64,000 bases of DNA, taken from Hydrolagus affinis. Its lineage: Eukaryota. Below, in pieces: positions 5,648 to 60,100 of the stretch (its first letter is position 1; each line of letters begins with the position of its first letter). The position numbers and the translations under genes were made by a program. The notes under the pieces were generated by a model. It had not been told where the DNA came from. It ran no database searches and saw only the letters and a list, made by a program, of their open reading frames with translations. Location of the stretch: contig JAAILG010000184.1 of NCBI GenBank assembly GCA_012026655.1, positions 1-64,000 of the forward strand, in the 5' to 3' direction.

Positions 5648-5878
5648 GGAGTCCGGTTGCTCAGTGGTTAGAGCACTCGCTTTGTAAGCAAGAAACCTAG
5701 GTTCAATTCCAGGCAGAGCAAAACCTTAGGCAATTTTTCTAACTCACAACACCTGATAATAATCCCCCCCAAAAAAAATATTGGTCATTTCAATCCACAA
5801 CTGTTTGTGGGAGACAGCACGATTAGCTGCCGCGTTTCGCCCACAAAAATACAGTCATTTCCAGAATATTCTGTAAGA
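5648..5878 (+). mobile_element. tRNA-derived DeuSINE (SINE2-1_CM-like), 3' truncated
   Basis: A box TTGCTCAGTGG and B box GTTCAATTCC, then the Deu core 'ctgtttgtgggagacagc..attagctgccgcgtttcgcccacaaaa'. Homologous to the copies at 15763 and 45635. Confidence 0.9.
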
Positions 5879-15758: not shown

Positions 15759-15762
15759 TGTA

Positions 15763-16073
15763 AAATAGTAATAATCCTTCCATTTGATGTAGCACTTTTC
15801 AAGTCTTCTAGATATCTCAAAGTGCTTCACAGAATACCGTATACTGTAAAGTGAATTATTTATATATTTGTGGGTGAAACGCGGTAGCCAATTGCGCACA
15901 GCAGTGTCCCACAAACAGTGGTAGATTGAACTGACCAATTTTTTTGTTTGTTTTTTGAGCGATTATTATTAGACGTGTGGATTAAAGAAACTTGCTTAAG
16001 GTTTCGCGCTGCCTAGAATCGATCCAGGTCTTTCAATTGTGAGGCAAGTTCTCTGACCACGGAGCTACAGGAC
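15763..16073 (-). mobile_element. Full-length tRNA-derived DeuSINE (SINE2-1_CM-like)
   Basis: Tail 'aataatccttccatttgat', Deu core 'gccaattgcgcacagcagtgtcccacaaacag', tRNA head 'accacggagctacaggac'. Confidence 0.9.
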
Positions 16074-28529: not shown

Positions 28530-29265
28530 TGCATTATCACATCATTGTGAGGTCTCAAAGTGCTTCACAGAATACAGTAAAACCTTCGTTATCCGGCACC
28601 CTCGGGACCTGACCATTGCCAGTTAATTAAATATGCCGGATAATCAAGCAGCAAGTTGCCAAAAATCCTACACAATAAATTAACTTATTTTAAAACATAC
28701 CATATTAATAATAACTAAATAATAAAAGAATATTGTATGGTTACTTACCAATAAAGCATTCCAGCACACTTGGTAAAATGATCAGTAAAAAAAAGCATTC
28801 CAGTGTTCGGTAAGTTTAATAAGTGCGCATGCACAAAGTGAGCATACCGCGAGTATCCCAGATCTCCCAATAACTAAATAATAAAAGATGGTTGAGTATG
28901 CCGGTTGGTCGGGTACCAGATAAACAAGGTTTTACTGTACACTGTAAAGTGAATTGACTGTAGACAAAACACAGCAGCTAATTGCGCACGGCAGTGTCCC
29001 CCAAACATTTGCAGATTGAGACACCAGATTCTTATTAATAATAATAAATAGTCATGGATTGGGTAATCAAACTATTATTGTTTTTTATAAGGCTGATTAT
29101 CTCTGGGAAAGTGATCCGCCAATCGACTAATAACTGGGTTCCTACTTACTCTAGGTAAACAGAAGCATGTAGAGTAAGGAAACTTGCCCAACATTTTGTC
29201 CTGCCGGTTACAGAGCCCAGGTCTCATGCTTGCGAGGTGAGTGCTCTAACCACTGAGCTACAGTA
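28530..29265 (-). mobile_element. tRNA-derived DeuSINE interrupted by a Tigger MITE
   Basis: Tail portion 'tctcaaagtgcttcacagaata' resumes as 'tacactgtaaagtgaattgactgta' after the MITE. tRNA head 'gagtgctctaaccactgagctacag' at ~29240-29262. Confidence 0.85.
28575..28937. mobile_element. Tigger-like (Tc1/mariner-pogo) MITE, 363 bp
   Basis: TIRs CAGTAAAACCTTCGTTATCCGGCACCC / GGGTACCAGATAAACAAGGTTTTACTG with TA TSD at 28573-74 and 28938-39. Confidence 0.9.
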
Positions 29266-29785
29266 CTTGGGTACAGGATGCTGTTGGAAATTGAATGGAA
29301 TCAAGATGCTATGAGCATCGTGCAAATGACTGGGTGCTGCATTTCGATAGGTAGGCTGTACGCCTGTGTCTCAAATGGAGCAGCTGTGGTCTGCTAATGA
29401 TTTCACTTTGTTTGTGTGGTTCAGGACTAGTGGATTCTTTGCAGCTGTGGAAAACAACTGCCAAGAAAATGTGCAGAAATGTAATTTAGAAAGTATGCTG
29501 TTCGATTTCTGGAGGGAATTGAAAGTGGAACCTCCACAATCTTGGTCCCTGAATGATCGCTGGACATTTACTCGCTGTGTCATAATTCTGTTGTGCAAAA
29601 AAAAAGTGTGTTTCTCATCCGTCCAAACGGATTTGAAATCAAGGATTTTCATGTTCTTGCCAAATGAACCACCATTTCACTGTGGGTGTTGGAGCTATGG
29701 GAGATCTTATGTCACAGAGATTTTTCAATCATAACCCAGGTTATTGCTTTTACTAACACGAGATATCACTTGTTTGTTATGCTTA

Positions 29786-35079: not shown

Positions 35080-35200
35080 TAATAAATAATAATAATCGTT
35101 GTATTTGAATATAGGGCCTTAGCATGTCTTCGAGTCGTCTCAAAGCGCTTCACAGAATATACTGTAAATTTAATTGACTGTATATTTTGTGGGTTAAATA
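35080..35200 (-). mobile_element. SINE2-1_CM-like 3' fragment
   Basis: (aat)n + 'gtctcaaagcgcttcacagaatatactgtaaa..gactgtatattttgtggg'. Confidence 0.85.
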
Positions 35201-35254
35201 TAAAGGGTTTTTGAAAGGTCAGCCAGGTATTTAATACATTGACACATCCGCGTA

Positions 35255-35400
35255 CTGAGCAGTTCTGACAAAGGGTCGTAGACCCGAAACGTTGACTCAC
35301 TTTCCTTTCTCCATAGATGCTGCCTGACCTGCTGAGTGTTCCCAGCCACTTCTGTTTTTGTTTCAGATTTCAAACATCTGCAGCATTTTGCGTTTTGTTG
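35255..35400 (+). mobile_element. Penelope-like element pLTR fragment carrying a minimal hammerhead-like core
   Basis: AGTT-CTGACAA-A-GGGTC-GTA-GACCC-GAAAC-GTT-GACT, then 'ctccatagatgctgcctgacctgctgagt..ccagc..tctgtttttgtttcagattt..catctgcag'. Homologous to both arms at 56728-57009. Confidence 0.75.
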
Positions 35401-38163
35401 AAAGTATCCAACCGAGACTAAGAGTTCCACATATGTATGCCACCTACATAGGAAAAATTTCCCCGAGTCTGGTATGGAATGTGCACTCTCTCTGGAGGGT
35501 TGCTCTCTACTTACCTAATTCTGGAGAATATTAGGTGCAGGTTGGCAAGAGCCTAGGGCTTGGGGATCTTCAATTCCCTTTTTGAATCATATCATGGAAT
35601 ATTTTACAACCTGAACATTCTGACAGAACAACCTGCTGGCGCAAAGGCAAGAATGCTACAATGTGAACTGGATTGATATGGAAAATAGCTGACACCTTCG
35701 CACACAAGTATGGGGATGTGTCAGCTAAACCATAGCTTACAATTGGTGAAGATCTCATCCATTTAGGCTCACCAGCTGCAAGATATAGTGCAGTTCTTAC
35801 AATTCCCAACATTTAACGGTCATAAACGTTAATCTGCATATTAATGATTAATCAGCAGTGTTGTTTTGTGACTGGGGCCAGTTATATTTCCGTAATGTTT
35901 TATTCAATGAACAGCAGTGCAGAAGAACAAATTCCAATACATTTTGTGGAAATATGACTTAATCGACTCTTGTGGGGTCCAACTCAAATCTAGCCAGATC
36001 AGCTCCTGCAGACTGCAGAGGATACTGAAAAGCATCATTCAATGATTGCACACTTCATGTTTTTTTTTCTGGGCAGCACCAATCAACCTTTTCATGATTG
36101 TCTTGTCACAGATGTGAACTTGTAAGACTGGATCAGAATCAGTGATCAGCAGTCAGAAAATAAACTTCTGTTACATTATGATATTTGAGCGCTTTCCAAA
36201 ATTTCCAAAACATATTAAGGATGCAAAACAATTAAACCAAGGAAATCAAATGGTTTATTAATTTATTAAAGTCCCATTCGTAATGTGTATTTGCATTTAT
36301 ACAATATTTACCAATAACTTATTTAGCTTTCAAATTCTTCCCAATAATTTACACACAGAATTCTATAAGAATTACTGTGATTTTTTAAAATAAATTTACA
36401 TTTAGTTGCATATCTCTTGGTACATGATGTAAATTGAATAACCAAACTGGTAATATCAGAGTATTACAATGATTTAGAAATGCTGAAAATGTTGTAGGCT
36501 ATGTTTGACCCTCCTATTATTTATTAATACTTCATAATGTGCATTTATGAGATGTTTATTTTACAATATTGGAAAATGTTTGAAAGGTATGTAGACTTTA
36601 GAGACAGCTGAGTGATAGAATGTTTTTTGGAAAGATTGACCTATTAATGTGGGCAGAGTGACAAGGAATAACATAAATGACATTACAGATATTGAAAAGG
36701 TGGACATAAAATTGATAGAGGAGATGCCAGAAGCAACATGAATACATCCTATTAATAAGGGCAACTATGTGGTAGTTGGCAACTTGTTAGTAACCAACAG
36801 CTCAGCTAGCAAGGAAGGTAATTAAGCAAGCAAGAGAGACTGCAGGGAATTGCGGCACAATAGTTCTGAGGCTTTTCGTATACTGTATTTCAGAGGTAAA
36901 ATGGGCAGACCAGAGAAAAACAAAAAAGGATAGACAGGTGGAACTAAACCAATTCCATGGAGGGGTTATATTGCATGTGAAGCAGAATGCACACATTTGT
37001 TAGTTTGTAGTCCTGCAGAAATTATCATCTGGAAGTGGGTCAGAACAAAAAATAACAGTACGAATTTAGAAAAGTAATGAGATCTGAGAAGAAGCCCAGA
37101 GAGGATTAACTCAAAAGTCAACCCAACAATTCTCAAGTTATTTTAAGCCTCAGAGCGTCTTGGCCTGTAGATGTGGTGGGGTATGATCTAGCTGTGTATC
37201 AAAAGCTAGAGTATTGGAAAACCAGATAGGTTCTTGACTGGAGAGGACGGGACATATTGTGAAGCATCGAAAAAGGCAGATTTTAAAAAGGCTGGAACGT
37301 TACAGAAGTTAAGGGCGACAAGATCCGTTGGACCGCATGTAATGCAGCCTACAACCCACCCTAACAAGTATGAGTGAAACTTTTGTTCACAGGTTATATG
37401 CTCTGTAAAATACAGGGAATGTAATTCAATACAAGAGCACAGGAAATGCAACCTTGATATTCAAATGAGGAGCAAGATGTAAATTAGGGAATTATAGACC
37501 CGTTATGTTGATCTAAATACTGAAACAAATGCTTGAAAGCAGCTATTTATTCTACTGCATGATGCATGCACTGGTTAAGCATGCTTGTTGAGTGTTTAGG
37601 TCTCCAATCAATGTCACAAAGCTGTAAACTGGTGAAACAGCTTTGGTGCTGAAAATCAAAAGCCTTTTGCTGCTATAGCGGTTGGCATCACAACTAAAGA
37701 TTTTTGAAACGTGCTTCCCAAATAGACCACAAGAAGAGTATCCAAAACCAGGTATCATTTTAAAATTCACGTCATAATCGCTTTGGCTTACTAACGCCCC
37801 CATAATCAAGCAAATGCACCATATTTAGCTATACTTTTGCACAGTGTGTACTTATGACACCCAGCTGCTTTAGAAGGTTTACACTAACGTGTGGCTTTGA
37901 TGTGCATTCTAGTGATCAGATAATTTAAAGTGAAAGCAATGTGATCTGTTTCAAGAAAAAACCCAGAAGAAAATGTGCATCCTGCTGTTCAGTGCTGTCA
38001 GTAGTCAGTACAGTTTAGCTCATGATCTTAATTTGATTTCATGCATATTTAATAACTATTTTTTTCTGGTACAGTCTTGTACGCAAGACTGAATATGCAA
38101 CTATTCAGAGACAGTCAGTTACTCAGAGAAGCACAAAAGTGATGTCTGTGGTCAAAATGTCAA

Positions 38164-45634: not shown

Positions 45635-45921
45635 AAATTAATCCTTGCATTTGGTATAGAGCTTTTCACGTCTTCTAGAAGTCTCAAAGAGTTTCACAGA
45701 ATATTGTGTAAAGTGAATTCACTGTATATTTTGTGGGCGAAACACGGCAGCCAATTATGCACAGCAGTTGGATTGAAGTGACCCAATTTTTTTTTGAGGG
45801 ATTATTATCAGGCATAATATCAGGAGTAAGGAAACTTGCCCGAGGTTTTGCTCCTCTGGGAATCGAATCCAGGTCTCTCACTTGCGAGGCGAGTGCTCTC
45901 ACCACTGAGCTAAAGGACTCC
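45635..45921 (-). mobile_element. Full-length tRNA(Ala)-like-headed DeuSINE (SINE2-1_CM-like)
   Basis: Minus head GGAGTCCTTTAGCTCAGTGGTGAGAGCACTCGCCTCGCAAGTGAG has a paired anticodon arm with CGC. B-box-like GATTCGATTCC, Deu core and 'caaatgcaaggatt' tail follow. Confidence 0.9.
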
Positions 45922-55985: not shown

Positions 55986-56727
55986 CTATGATTGTTATTC
56001 TGCAGGTTCCACTTTCTGCAAAAATTGAACCGGTATCTTTGACATGGCATGATGTCTGCTGTCATCTAGTCCCATCTTACCCCTCATGCCATTATTGTGG
56101 CATTGCTACAGCCTAAGTAGATTCTCTGTGTGTTCAGTGGTCCTCATTCAACAATTTGCTGGATGTGTTTTCGTTGCTTAAAATGCTAAAATGCATAGCT
56201 TTATTTTGCAATGTTACTGCCCTTTAAGTTTTTGGGGGGTTGGTAAGCATCTGTTTTCTCTCTCTCTTACATCAGCTCTGCTTGGGGGGGCCCCATTTAG
56301 ATGAGAGAACTGGGGTAGATTGATGACCTCTTCAAAATGCCCAGCAGGGAGTTCATCTAATGCTATAACATATGCACATTATTAATAGGGCTGCAGTCTT
56401 CATTTGCTCGGTTAGGTCATGGCAATGAAATCTGCTCTATGATTTGTATTGGAGTAAAGAATTACTGAAGGTGCCTGTGGATGGTTTGTAACCTGCAGGT
56501 ACAATTTGAAGTCAGTGACAAAACCATTTATAAACAATAGTAATTTCTTAACCACTTTAGATTGTGTTCCCCTATTCATAAGTGCTTATAACACCTGCTG
56601 GTGCAAACAGATAACCATATAATATACAGTATTTGAAATATTCTCTCTCTAATTCTGGGTTGGATGTAAAAAAATTCTGTGCTTGTTGTAATGGTCTGGA
56701 TTTTCAGCCCATTGAATATAAAAATAA

Positions 56728-57009
56728 ACAAAAACGTAAAATACTGCAGATGCTGGAAAGCTGAAACAAAAACAGAGATCCCCAGGAGCACTCAGCAGGT
56801 CAGACAGCATCGTGAGTCAACACTTCAGGTCCGCGACCCTTCGTTCAGATGAACAGAAAAGCAAACAGAATGAAGAATCTTCAAAACAAAATAATCTTCA
56901 TTCTTCGTCAGAACGAAGGGTCGTGGACCCGAAACGTTGACTCACTTTTCTTTTCTCCATAGATGCTGCCTGACCTGCTGAATGTTCCCAGTGATTTATG
57001 CTTTTGTTT
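56728..57009. mobile_element. Fold-back (inverted pLTR) Penelope-derived insertion, 282 bp, with 16-bp TSD
   Basis: The left arm is the reverse complement of the right arm, and both match 35255-35400. TTGAATATAAAAATAA is duplicated exactly at 56712-56727 and 57010-57025. Confidence 0.85.
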
Positions 57010-57065
57010 TTGAATATAAAAATAATCTTTGCTTTTGATACCAGATTGTCAAACTAACAATAATG

Positions 57066-57170
57066 ATTTGGTCACCCAATCCACGACTGTTTGTGGGACA
57101 CCGCTGTGCGCAATTGGCTGCTGCGTGTCACGCACAAAATATACAGGCAATTCACTTTACAGTATACAAC
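57066..57170 (+). mobile_element. DeuSINE core fragment
   Basis: 'ctgtttgtgggacaccgctgtgcgcaattggctgctgcg..caattcactttacagtata'. Confidence 0.85.
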
Positions 57171-60100
57171 TGATGGAGAACTTTTTGCAAATAAGCTCAA
57201 ATGTATGTAGCTCTCTGAGGAAACAGTATGATTTAATTCTGGAAACTACTTTTTGTTACATAAATTTGATTGCTGTGGTTAGGGAAGGTGAGGTAATTCC
57301 CACGATGTATTGGTATTCTAAACCTTCGATAGCCTTTGTGAATCATTTGGCAGATTTGTATACTGCATTTTACACATTTCCACAGGAACCATCAGCTAAT
57401 ATTTGATAAAGTTCAATAAAAGGATTGAATTTTTTTTGACTTAAGTTGTATTGACATTTGTGATAAGATTTAAACAGAGTAACATATCATTAAGGCTTTT
57501 CAGAGCTTTTCGGATACTGTATAAGGCACTAGAATTGAACATTAAAGGATATGCAAAGCCCTTATCCATTTGTGCCATTTATTATTACTGACCCTCCCTG
57601 CCCACATTTAACTAACAAAAGAGACCTCCAAAGAGGTAAAGCCAAGGAGAGAGGTAGAACTATTTTCTTAACATTCCAGAGCTTGCAAATCTGGCGCATT
57701 TGTTAAATTTAATCTTAGTTTGGCAGCTGTTTTTCTTCAAAATATCTGCAGAAAACTGGCTCCTTAATAAAACCGAATTTAAGAATGTGCCAAAATTTGC
57801 ACGTTCAAAAGTGTTAAGAGAATACGGTGATCTCCTGATAGCTCATCACTCCAAGTGAAAAAGGCTTAGTGACAAGTTATCTGGAATGCCGAGTTAGGCA
57901 TATAAATAAATACATATATAAATGAGGCCAGTATATTGACAGATGACTTAAGTGGTAGTGATAAGTTAAGCCAGGCTTGAATTAACAGGTGTTTACTGTA
58001 GTTTAAATCTACAACCAGGTGGAATATCTGACCTGATTTTCATTTAAAAGGAACTTAGATCTATGTATCAACTTGTTTGGCAGCCTGGAATAGAAGGAGC
58101 AGCAGATTGCCAGTATTTTTGTTGAGGTGAGCCAGATTGAGAGCACTAGTTTTAATGTTCCAAGTCTGAACTTCATGGGTAAACTGAACTATCAATGGAG
58201 CCAAAGTTTGCCCAACTTTTCATTCCAACATTAACTGTGCGATCACTTTGGAGCCAATCACGTTTACTGTTTGACTTTAAAATATTTTCTTATGGATTTT
58301 CTGACCTTTCATTGTGGTGAAACTAAGAACACCATCAATCACTGTGCTGCCATTGGTGCTAGTTTGACTTCCAAGTAAAGGAGGATGAATGAAATGTATA
58401 TTGGCACAAATGCGTCGAGTGCCTTTGACTCCAAGTAAAGATCAGCTTGGCTCGTGAGATTTTATTTTTCTGGCTTAGTGCCAGTTCGCCAGTCCTTTGG
58501 TTTCCAGAGTCAACAAATGTAAGTCAATAAGAAGGGAAGCAGTGACCCGATGTAATAAAATTGAAGCCATGCAGCCAACTATCCCTATGACTTCAATTTG
58601 CCCACTTCAGGTCACTTCACACTTCTGCTTGACTCCAGTGGGAATACGGTCAGAAATTTACAAGTAAACCAATTTCAAATCGATATCCACTGAGAATGCA
58701 TCCTCGAAGGCAATAAGCACAAGTGAGTGTGATAACTTCATCCTTCATCAAATAAGGTCAGGTTAACTTGTTGAATCATCAACTGTAGGGTTATTTTCTA
58801 GTAATGGGCTAGAGTTCAGAATTGTGCTATTAATACACAAGCAGTACTGCAGCATTTTAGATTTGAATTTTACTGTGAGTCCAACTTACAGTGATGAATT
58901 CAATAAGATCTCTAACCCTACACCAATGAGATTCATATTGTCGTAAGCAGCTATACTTAAAATATGTTTAGCATTAAATATTGCACTATGTGTCATTTCC
59001 ATTTGCTTCTGTCTCCAAAATGGACTTAACTGCTTAAAGGTATATTTATGGTGTGGATTTGAAACTTCCTGTTGACAAAATTCAGTTTATCTTTAGTAAA
59101 TGGCTTTGTGCATTAGCAGTGGCTGTAATCAAATTTGTGACAGATGAGTTCTGTACAATTTGTTCCCATCATTAATTTGATGTTCTTTTAGCTTCAGTTG
59201 TATATAGCTAACTAATACTGTGTGCGACAACACTCGATAAAATAAGTTAAATAAAATGAGTTAAGTGAAGAATTACAATGATAAATGATACAATAGCAGC
59301 AGCACTGAACACATCCCATATGAGTCTCATCAGTCATCTTGGCCTCATGCTGCTCGCTGTTTGCCTTCTTTTTCCAAAATAAAAAGAGAAGCTTATCAGG
59401 TGCTTTGTAGCTTAGGACATAGAGCTATGGTATGGGCATCAAGAACAAGAGGTTCCTGGCATTTGAGACTTCCGACAAGAAGAGACGAGTGGTGAGTTTT
59501 ATCATCTCATCACGGAGTACCACACAATGCTCTATCTAATGGCATAAACTAATGCAATTCAATCTGCAGCAAGTTTGTATCTCCTTTTGGTCGTTAGCAG
59601 CAATGGTGCTGTTAAGAAGTCCGTGACCTAGATTGTTTGGCCCTCAAAGCTAAAGAGAGGCTGTCTGGGACTTAGTGATACCTTTGGGGAAACAAAGGGT
59701 CTAAGTAGAAGCTTAACATTTATTAATGTAAGTAGAAAATATCCATTTGCTGAACTAGACTGCAATTAAGGATAATATAACTCAAATAACTCAAGCAATA
59801 AAGAAAGAAAAATGACATAGATGGAATGATTACCATGCCAAAACAATTAATTTGATTTTATCTTGTGGCTATCATATTTTTCATTTAGAGACTTTGCAAA
59901 TATAGCCATGTTTTCAATCAGGTTAGCGATATTAAAATCTCCTTAATTATTGTAAAATAATCTATTATATTAAAGTTATTGTAACCTCAGATTTGATTCA
60001 GAGTGACACAAGTGAAGAACCAGATATTCACTCTGCGGCTGCGGCTTAAAAATAACCGAAAAATTGTATTGTTTCTTTTTGGATAGTTGCCAATTTAGAT

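Follow-up and report, generated by a model that had tools for sequence, protein, structure and literature searches.

At the locus described here (56712-57025 of the window, i.e. of the 64-kb stretch of DNA that was analysed), a short repeat of very high copy number occurs twice, head to head; a single-copy centre separates the two copies, and exact 16-bp repeats bound the whole on the outside. Its 282-base hairpin most probably goes back to a single, ordinary insertion of some age, with ribozyme motifs predicted to be dead, and we consider it highly probable that it was built in place as an ordinary insertion of a Penelope-like element (PLE) and did not arrive as a mobile unit. The reading that we favour (at roughly 60%) is that of one old PLE retrotransposition event, a two-primer step included.

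Results

Layout and fold of the insertion

The target-site duplication (TSD) is as the initial annotation had described it, with 282 bp lying between two identical 16-bp direct repeats (Table 1), and exact repeats of at least 16 bases spaced 100-600 bp apart were found in one other pair in the window (the simple-repeat tract at the window start being excluded). The unit at 35255-35400 (this solo unit is hereafter the 35k copy) does recur in the two arms as inverted copies, as had also been claimed (89.7% over 97 nt and 84.0% over 81 nt), and the arms do differ from each other by substitutions and a deletion (15/90 aligned bases, 6 of them of CpG type and 9/90 non-CpG, with 16 nt missing from the left arm). 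The tail of the left arm matches the end of the 35k copy and has no counterpart in the right arm; the same tail end starts at 56729-56731 in 3 of the 12 junction rows listed, which represent other loci in the contigs of related organisms. No empty site was present among the 15 joints listed (of 360) from these contigs. Elsewhere in the window, exact direct repeats of 20 bp at 28710-28729 and 28869-28888 enclose 139 bp (28710-28888 in all) that look like another TSD-flanked insertion and show no homology to the PLE-like repeat.

Table 1. Features of the locus and of the solo repeat copy (window coordinates)
Feature	Position	Strand	Basis or remark
Solo copy of the repeat with tail, minimal type I hammerhead anatomy	35260..35398	+	nhmmer and sequence comparison
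Left TSD copy, 16 bp, AT-rich	56712..56727	+	exact repeat
Left arm 3' extra end, 36 bp, PLE 'tail' pattern, one arm only	56728..56763	-	homology to 35364-35400
Left arm, family repeat from hammerhead core onward	56764..56853	-	minus-strand copy
Left-arm 16-nt deletion	between 56811 and 56812	-	right arm retains these 16 nt
Defective hammerhead core, left arm	56848-56823	-	8-base core, GAAG for GAAA
Single-copy central filler, patchwork, 49 nt	56854..56902	.	depth and sequence comparison
Filler piece, 9 nt	56857-56865		reverse complement of 57028-57036
Inner inverted repeat, filler region	56867-56876/56895-56904
Direct repeat, 8 nt, filler	56876-56883/56893-56900
Filler piece, 11 nt	56888-56898		exact match to 57019-57029 (TSD end and flank)
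Short inverted piece of family hammerhead core	56903..56914	-	sequence reading
Right arm, plus-strand copy without tail	56909..57009	+	family copies align from 56913-56916 onward only
Right TSD copy, 16 bp	57010..57025	+	exact repeat
Target DNA (TSD end and flank), likely template	57019..57036	+	matched by both filler pieces

Folding of either strand of the locus gives a single long hairpin, with energies of -132.1 and -141.4 kcal/mol (z-scores of -15.65 and -13.42), and 0/100 shuffles per strand folded as well, which bears out the hairpin from either strand that had been proposed; the inner 10-bp inverted repeat likewise lies where it had been placed. The description 'fully palindromic' does not hold, given the unpaired 36-bp tail, the 16-nt deletion in the left arm and a bulge of 13-14 nt at the hairpin centre. 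The hairpin would be a passive by-product of insertion.

Repeat family and PLE assignment

A search of the 64-kb window with nhmmer returned the three known copies only, and Pfam gave 0 matches in 142 frames of at least 68 aa across the window (a search that short exons would escape), no RT or GIY-YIG ORF being found in these frames at the locus or elsewhere in the window; the PLE origin is therefore argued from anatomy. On that footing the repeat probably represents the terminus of a Penelope-like retrotransposon, and the locus, which lacks an ORF as a stub would be expected to, is filed as a PLE-derived stub and not as an autonomous PLE. Among the traits expected of EN+ PLEs, an inverted, 5'-truncated, head-to-head copy and a tail in the 30-40 bp range at one end only were found, and the anatomy of a minimal hammerhead in a terminal repeat is present in the 35k copy except for G8. 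The Penelope origin suggested at the outset is supported, as is the first of the two options then offered, a single inverted event. The repeat presumably resembles those of cartilaginous fishes. Viral contigs held 0 copies of a 20-nt family motif, and 17 matches to this motif in metagenome contigs were rejected as chance (all 20-31 nt long, in GC-rich DNA). A SINE-type 3' end (35083-35198) precedes the 35k copy, on either side of which TTGAAAG (35211-35217 and near 35399-35405) may form a 7-bp repeat; it begins like the TSD of the main element and is too short for a TSD call.

Copies or fragments of a tRNA-headed SINE were seen by self-comparison at 5650-5721 and 45848-45919 and near 15760-16073, 29172-29267 and 57051-57168; two tRNA-like matches, the only ones obtained with Rfam at gathering score in the window, belong to this SINE. 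One SINE fragment begins 25 bp beyond the right edge of the insertion, and its depth in the contigs of related organisms is extreme; in organism B, 4 of the 12 listed junction rows join this fragment (57098-57165) directly to an end of the PLE-like unit (56729-56731 or 56915), and the unit therefore often lies in or beside that SINE.

Hammerhead cores

The 35k copy carries a 4-bp stem I, a 7-base core (G8 changed to A) with one extra base besides it, a 5-bp stem II and GAAA-CG-UU. In both arms of the locus the core has 8 bases instead of 7 and stem I amounts to 1 bp, as against 4 bp in the 35k copy; moreover, CAGA replaces CUGA in the right arm and GAAG replaces GAAA in the left one. The core strings quoted in the initial annotation are thus present in the DNA, and it is their standing as plausible hammerheads that fails, on account of the 8-base core, the 1-bp stem I and the GAAG and CAGA changes. 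In neither arm are the CUGANGA core, GAAA and stem I of an active hammerhead found together, and the cores of the locus are predicted to be inactive. The full hairpin fold would also pair the cores.

The extra core base is common to both arms and is absent from the 35k copy and from all 6 listed junction rows that show the core (7-base spacing); it is, judged from these alignments, a junction scar confined to the two arms. In the short inverted piece at 56903-56914 the family core runs backwards; this yields an apparent 'CAGAACGA' core on the plus strand and, on the minus strand (56911), a canonical CUGACGA that no stem II accompanies. This CUGACGA was considered as a ribozyme and rejected, as it lacks the stem II of the family and is followed by GAAG. 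Local folds of the three cores were no better than those of shuffles and gave no discrimination, and a search of Rfam at gathering score returned no hammerhead match. PLE hammerhead variants were reportedly described by Lunse et al. in 2017, and may bear on which core variants are tolerated; a literature search for insertions in the core turned up nothing related.

Copies in related organisms

The region 56420-57319 was compared, at 80% likeness, with contigs of organisms A (X1), B (X6) and D (X13) and with one RNA run of organism B (X18), 4 of the 19 listed runs being used in all. Summed depth in the peak arm bins reached 2.7 million (X1), 4.5 million (X6) and 0.43 million (X13), values that are no copy numbers; moreover, contigs can drop variants, and the joints of X1 and X6 were counted in part. 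The unique flank had depths of 44.6, 22.2 and 8.6, and the spacer, i.e. the central filler (bin 56870-56899), depths of 52.8, 0 and 6.6, respectively, so that arms and spacer stand four to five orders of magnitude apart. An X1 contig with a depth of 44.7 covers 56813-56930. In X6 the spacer has zero cover and the right flank scant cover, so that the depth comparison for the centre draws on X1 and X13; a contig of the X6 left flank does run into the left arm. The RNA run of organism B (about 27 in 100 read) gave zero reads from the spacer or the unique flank, the DNA contigs of this organism being likewise without the spacer.

The 15 joints listed (of 360) include 5 that cross the centre and connect minus with plus arm, 8 that are ordinary tailed monomers split over both arms, and a single fold-back, located at the core. 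Junctions from minus to plus make up 7 of the 12 junction rows listed (185 more exist), with intervening letters that all differ, and the present spacer occurs in none of these 7; head-to-head stubs thus recur in these genomes, the present centre being private. In all three organisms, junctions of 56758/56759 to 56913 were observed, in which an inverted arm consisting of little more than the ~30-bp tail is joined to a forward copy whose start is the hammerhead core; this short form is thus a recurrent one.

These data bear on the proposal that the locus belongs to a MITE-like hairpin family with ribozymes of both polarities, for which the initial annotation had proposed a search for further copies with the same spacer, naming a unique spacer with inactive, unshared cores as evidence against it. 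As run here, on the contigs of related organisms, the search returned largely that outcome: the spacer is at flank depth in X1 and X13 and the arms are thousands of times deeper. Further points against the family reading are the lack of the extra-base core in all 6 informative rows listed and in the 35k copy, and a centre with pieces that match its own flank.

Central filler

The filler contains two pieces (11 and 9 nt) that recur in the target DNA immediately to the right of the insertion, which makes it likely that the centre was built in place; a centre that copies the flank of its own site is also hard to reconcile with a unit already complete on arrival. In comparisons that were set up post hoc, after the match had been noticed, 0/12,651 sliding windows and 4/5000 shuffles attained the two-piece score of 20. 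Against the unbroken right stretch, 0, 1 and 1 of 1543 non-overlapping windows equalled the score under three definitions of the spacer, and 3/3000 spacer shuffles attained it, while the left-flank control scored 7, a value matched by about half of the windows. At 56892 (inside the 11-mer) the window and organism D share the base that matches the target, and the contigs of the closer relative (X1) differ. The pieces map beside the break, as is expected of templated insertions of the polymerase theta type.

Age and divergence

The initial annotation had noted that a divergence of the arms in excess of that of the TSD would favour movement as a unit. The excess is not significant (TSD 0/16 versus arms 15/90; Fisher p=0.12, or p=0.35 once changes of CpG type are excluded), and the notion that the arms are older than the TSD was consequently set aside. 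In organism D the flank differs at 19/206 bases (about 9%) and the spacer is present at flank depth; we infer that this spacer is orthologous to ours, the spacer and the flank being physically unlinked in the contigs. With the spacer present at ~9% divergence, the differences between the arms are in keeping with ageing, and an intact TSD calls for no special explanation (the probability of a perfect 16-mer at the divergence of D is 0.21). Furthermore, contigs of A and D at single-copy depth read A,A at 56810-56811, as in an undeleted left arm, and the 16-nt deletion is therefore likely recent. X1 restores a CpG at 56850.

Discussion

Relation to known elements

Inverted PLE architecture is already published (Arkhipova 2013, Craig 2021). 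An inverted 5'-truncated copy and a 30-40 bp tail at one end count as typical features of PLEs (Craig et al. 2021, PMC8557442). For inverted pLTRs, Arkhipova et al. (2013, PMC3846280) show TSDs of 8-10 bp and a tail of 31 bp, with palindromes where two copies meet head to head; inverted pLTRs and short 3' extensions are also listed in PMC8969392. With the inverted-pLTR insertions of EN+ PLEs (PMC3846280, PMC8557442) the locus shares head-to-head 5'-truncated copies, a one-ended tail, an outer TSD and a junction palindrome; unlike those insertions, as there described, it has no ORF between the arms (a stub), its TSD of 16 bp exceeds the 8-10 bp cases of PMC3846280, and its junction is a 49-nt patchwork that matches the target flank.

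Cervera and de la Pena (2014, PMC4209133) describe minimal hammerheads in PLE repeats, with opposite-strand pairs 100-700 bp apart. The 35k copy is like these minimal type I hammerheads in having a base between 9 and 10.1, a G10.1-C11.1 pair and a palindromic ACGU, whereas both cores of the locus are 8-base ones without stem I. Poseidon PAc of Anolis carolinensis (Frangieh et al. 2024, PMC11167929) offers a likeness in anatomy: its target is AT-rich, its tail is of similar length and its hammerhead precedes the ends by some 100-140 nt. Non-LTR retrozymes (bioRxiv 10.64898/2026.07.22.740005) are comparable as short non-coding hammerhead-bearing PLE derivatives in vertebrates, but form direct tandem arrays with complete hammerheads, whereas the locus is an inverted pair with defective cores. 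Patchwork insertions templated from the flanks of a break are given as a hallmark of microhomology-mediated end joining in PMC12426944, and the filler resembles such polymerase theta inserts in its short flank-copied pieces with unassignable bases between them; it is longer than these inserts (usually <25 bp), and template jumping by the PLE RT could serve as well.

Proposed mechanism and alternatives

Under the favoured reading, a PLE GIY-YIG endonuclease would have introduced two nicks into AT-rich DNA, one per strand and 16 bp apart, and each 3' end would have primed reverse transcription of the element RNA, one cDNA starting from a distal site (the arm with the tail) and the other from a proximal site (the arm without it). 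Two such nicks, each priming a cDNA, with and without tail, would give the observed layout directly. Both cDNAs would have halted near the hammerhead core; as their ends would be identical and not complementary, joining them would need microhomology-primed copying of the partner end and of other nearby DNA, and repeated rounds of such synthesis may have joined them. Copying of the partner end would have left both arms with one and the same small inversion (the 'variant cores'), and copying of adjacent target DNA pieces would have produced the filler; ordinary mutation, to a large extent at CpG, would subsequently have driven the arms apart. According to PMC11167929, a PLE protein cuts and extends both strands and prefers AT-rich DNA, two RT start sites on the RNA delimit the tail, and hammerhead cleavage is dispensable in vitro. 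As a general account of head-to-head Penelope insertions, double target-primed reverse transcription from two RT start sites, sealed by flank-borrowing, microhomology-primed template switching, is put forward here tentatively, as something that we would rather doubt than assert.

The insertion could also have been built in place from one primed cDNA, whose filler-bearing end folded back and was extended along its own strand, or by self-priming of the RNA. The inverted repeat continues for about 10 nt into sequence that does not belong to the element, which makes a single fold-back a fair rival; the core inversion and the bases diagnostic against the 35k copy are the same in both arms, and self-priming is the published account of junction palindromes (PMC3846280). 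We nevertheless regard a fold-back as unlikely, since the copied arm would have to end exactly at the tail boundary and join the target without overlap, the centre is a patchwork of several pieces rather than a simple loop, and two RT start sites on either strand (PMC11167929) explain the tail boundary directly. A tight palindrome inserted first, whose tip (as a cruciform) later broke and received the filler through end-joining repair, would leave a centre that can be read as an insert between the CTTCGT copies at 56839-56844 and 56903-56908, and break repair does typically leave templated inserts. The templates, however, lie 120-180 bp from the centre, at the edge of the TSD, where they would be beside the cDNA ends during insertion only, which renders a later repair of the palindrome less likely; organisms A and D, moreover, carry the same spacer, and we judge this course of events distinctly improbable.

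Building in place is common to the favoured reading and to both of these alternatives, and is what separates them from a family of non-autonomous hairpin retroelements that would move as complete units with variant ribozymes on both strands. The strong hairpin of either strand, the exact TSD around the whole and the extra base common to both arms speak for such a family. Against it stand the single-copy spacer in two organisms at 80% likeness, the differing letters at other junctions, the match of the filler to the flank of its own locus and the non-significant contrast between arm and TSD divergence, together with a 16-nt deletion that is likely recent and cores that lack stem I; we consider it very improbable indeed.

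Significance

Taken by itself the locus is of little weight: it is an old stub, arranged in a known way, and one among the members of a very large repeat family. A mobile hairpin with ribozymes of both polarities would have been new, and the tests went against such a unit. What retains interest is the sealing of PLE junctions, on which the target-templated filler may give a clue: a literature search that covered mainly open-access papers turned up no report of target-templated filler at PLE inverted junctions and none of twin priming for PLEs, and the completion of PLE insertion and the origin of the inverted repeats are stated to be open in PMC8557442 and PMC11167929. If the two-primer, template-switching reading is true, the locus records that very step, and the many inverted stubs of this genome would constitute a natural data set to decide between it and the published self-priming model. 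Should target-templated filler prove general at inverted junctions, it would narrow down how PLEs finish their insertion.
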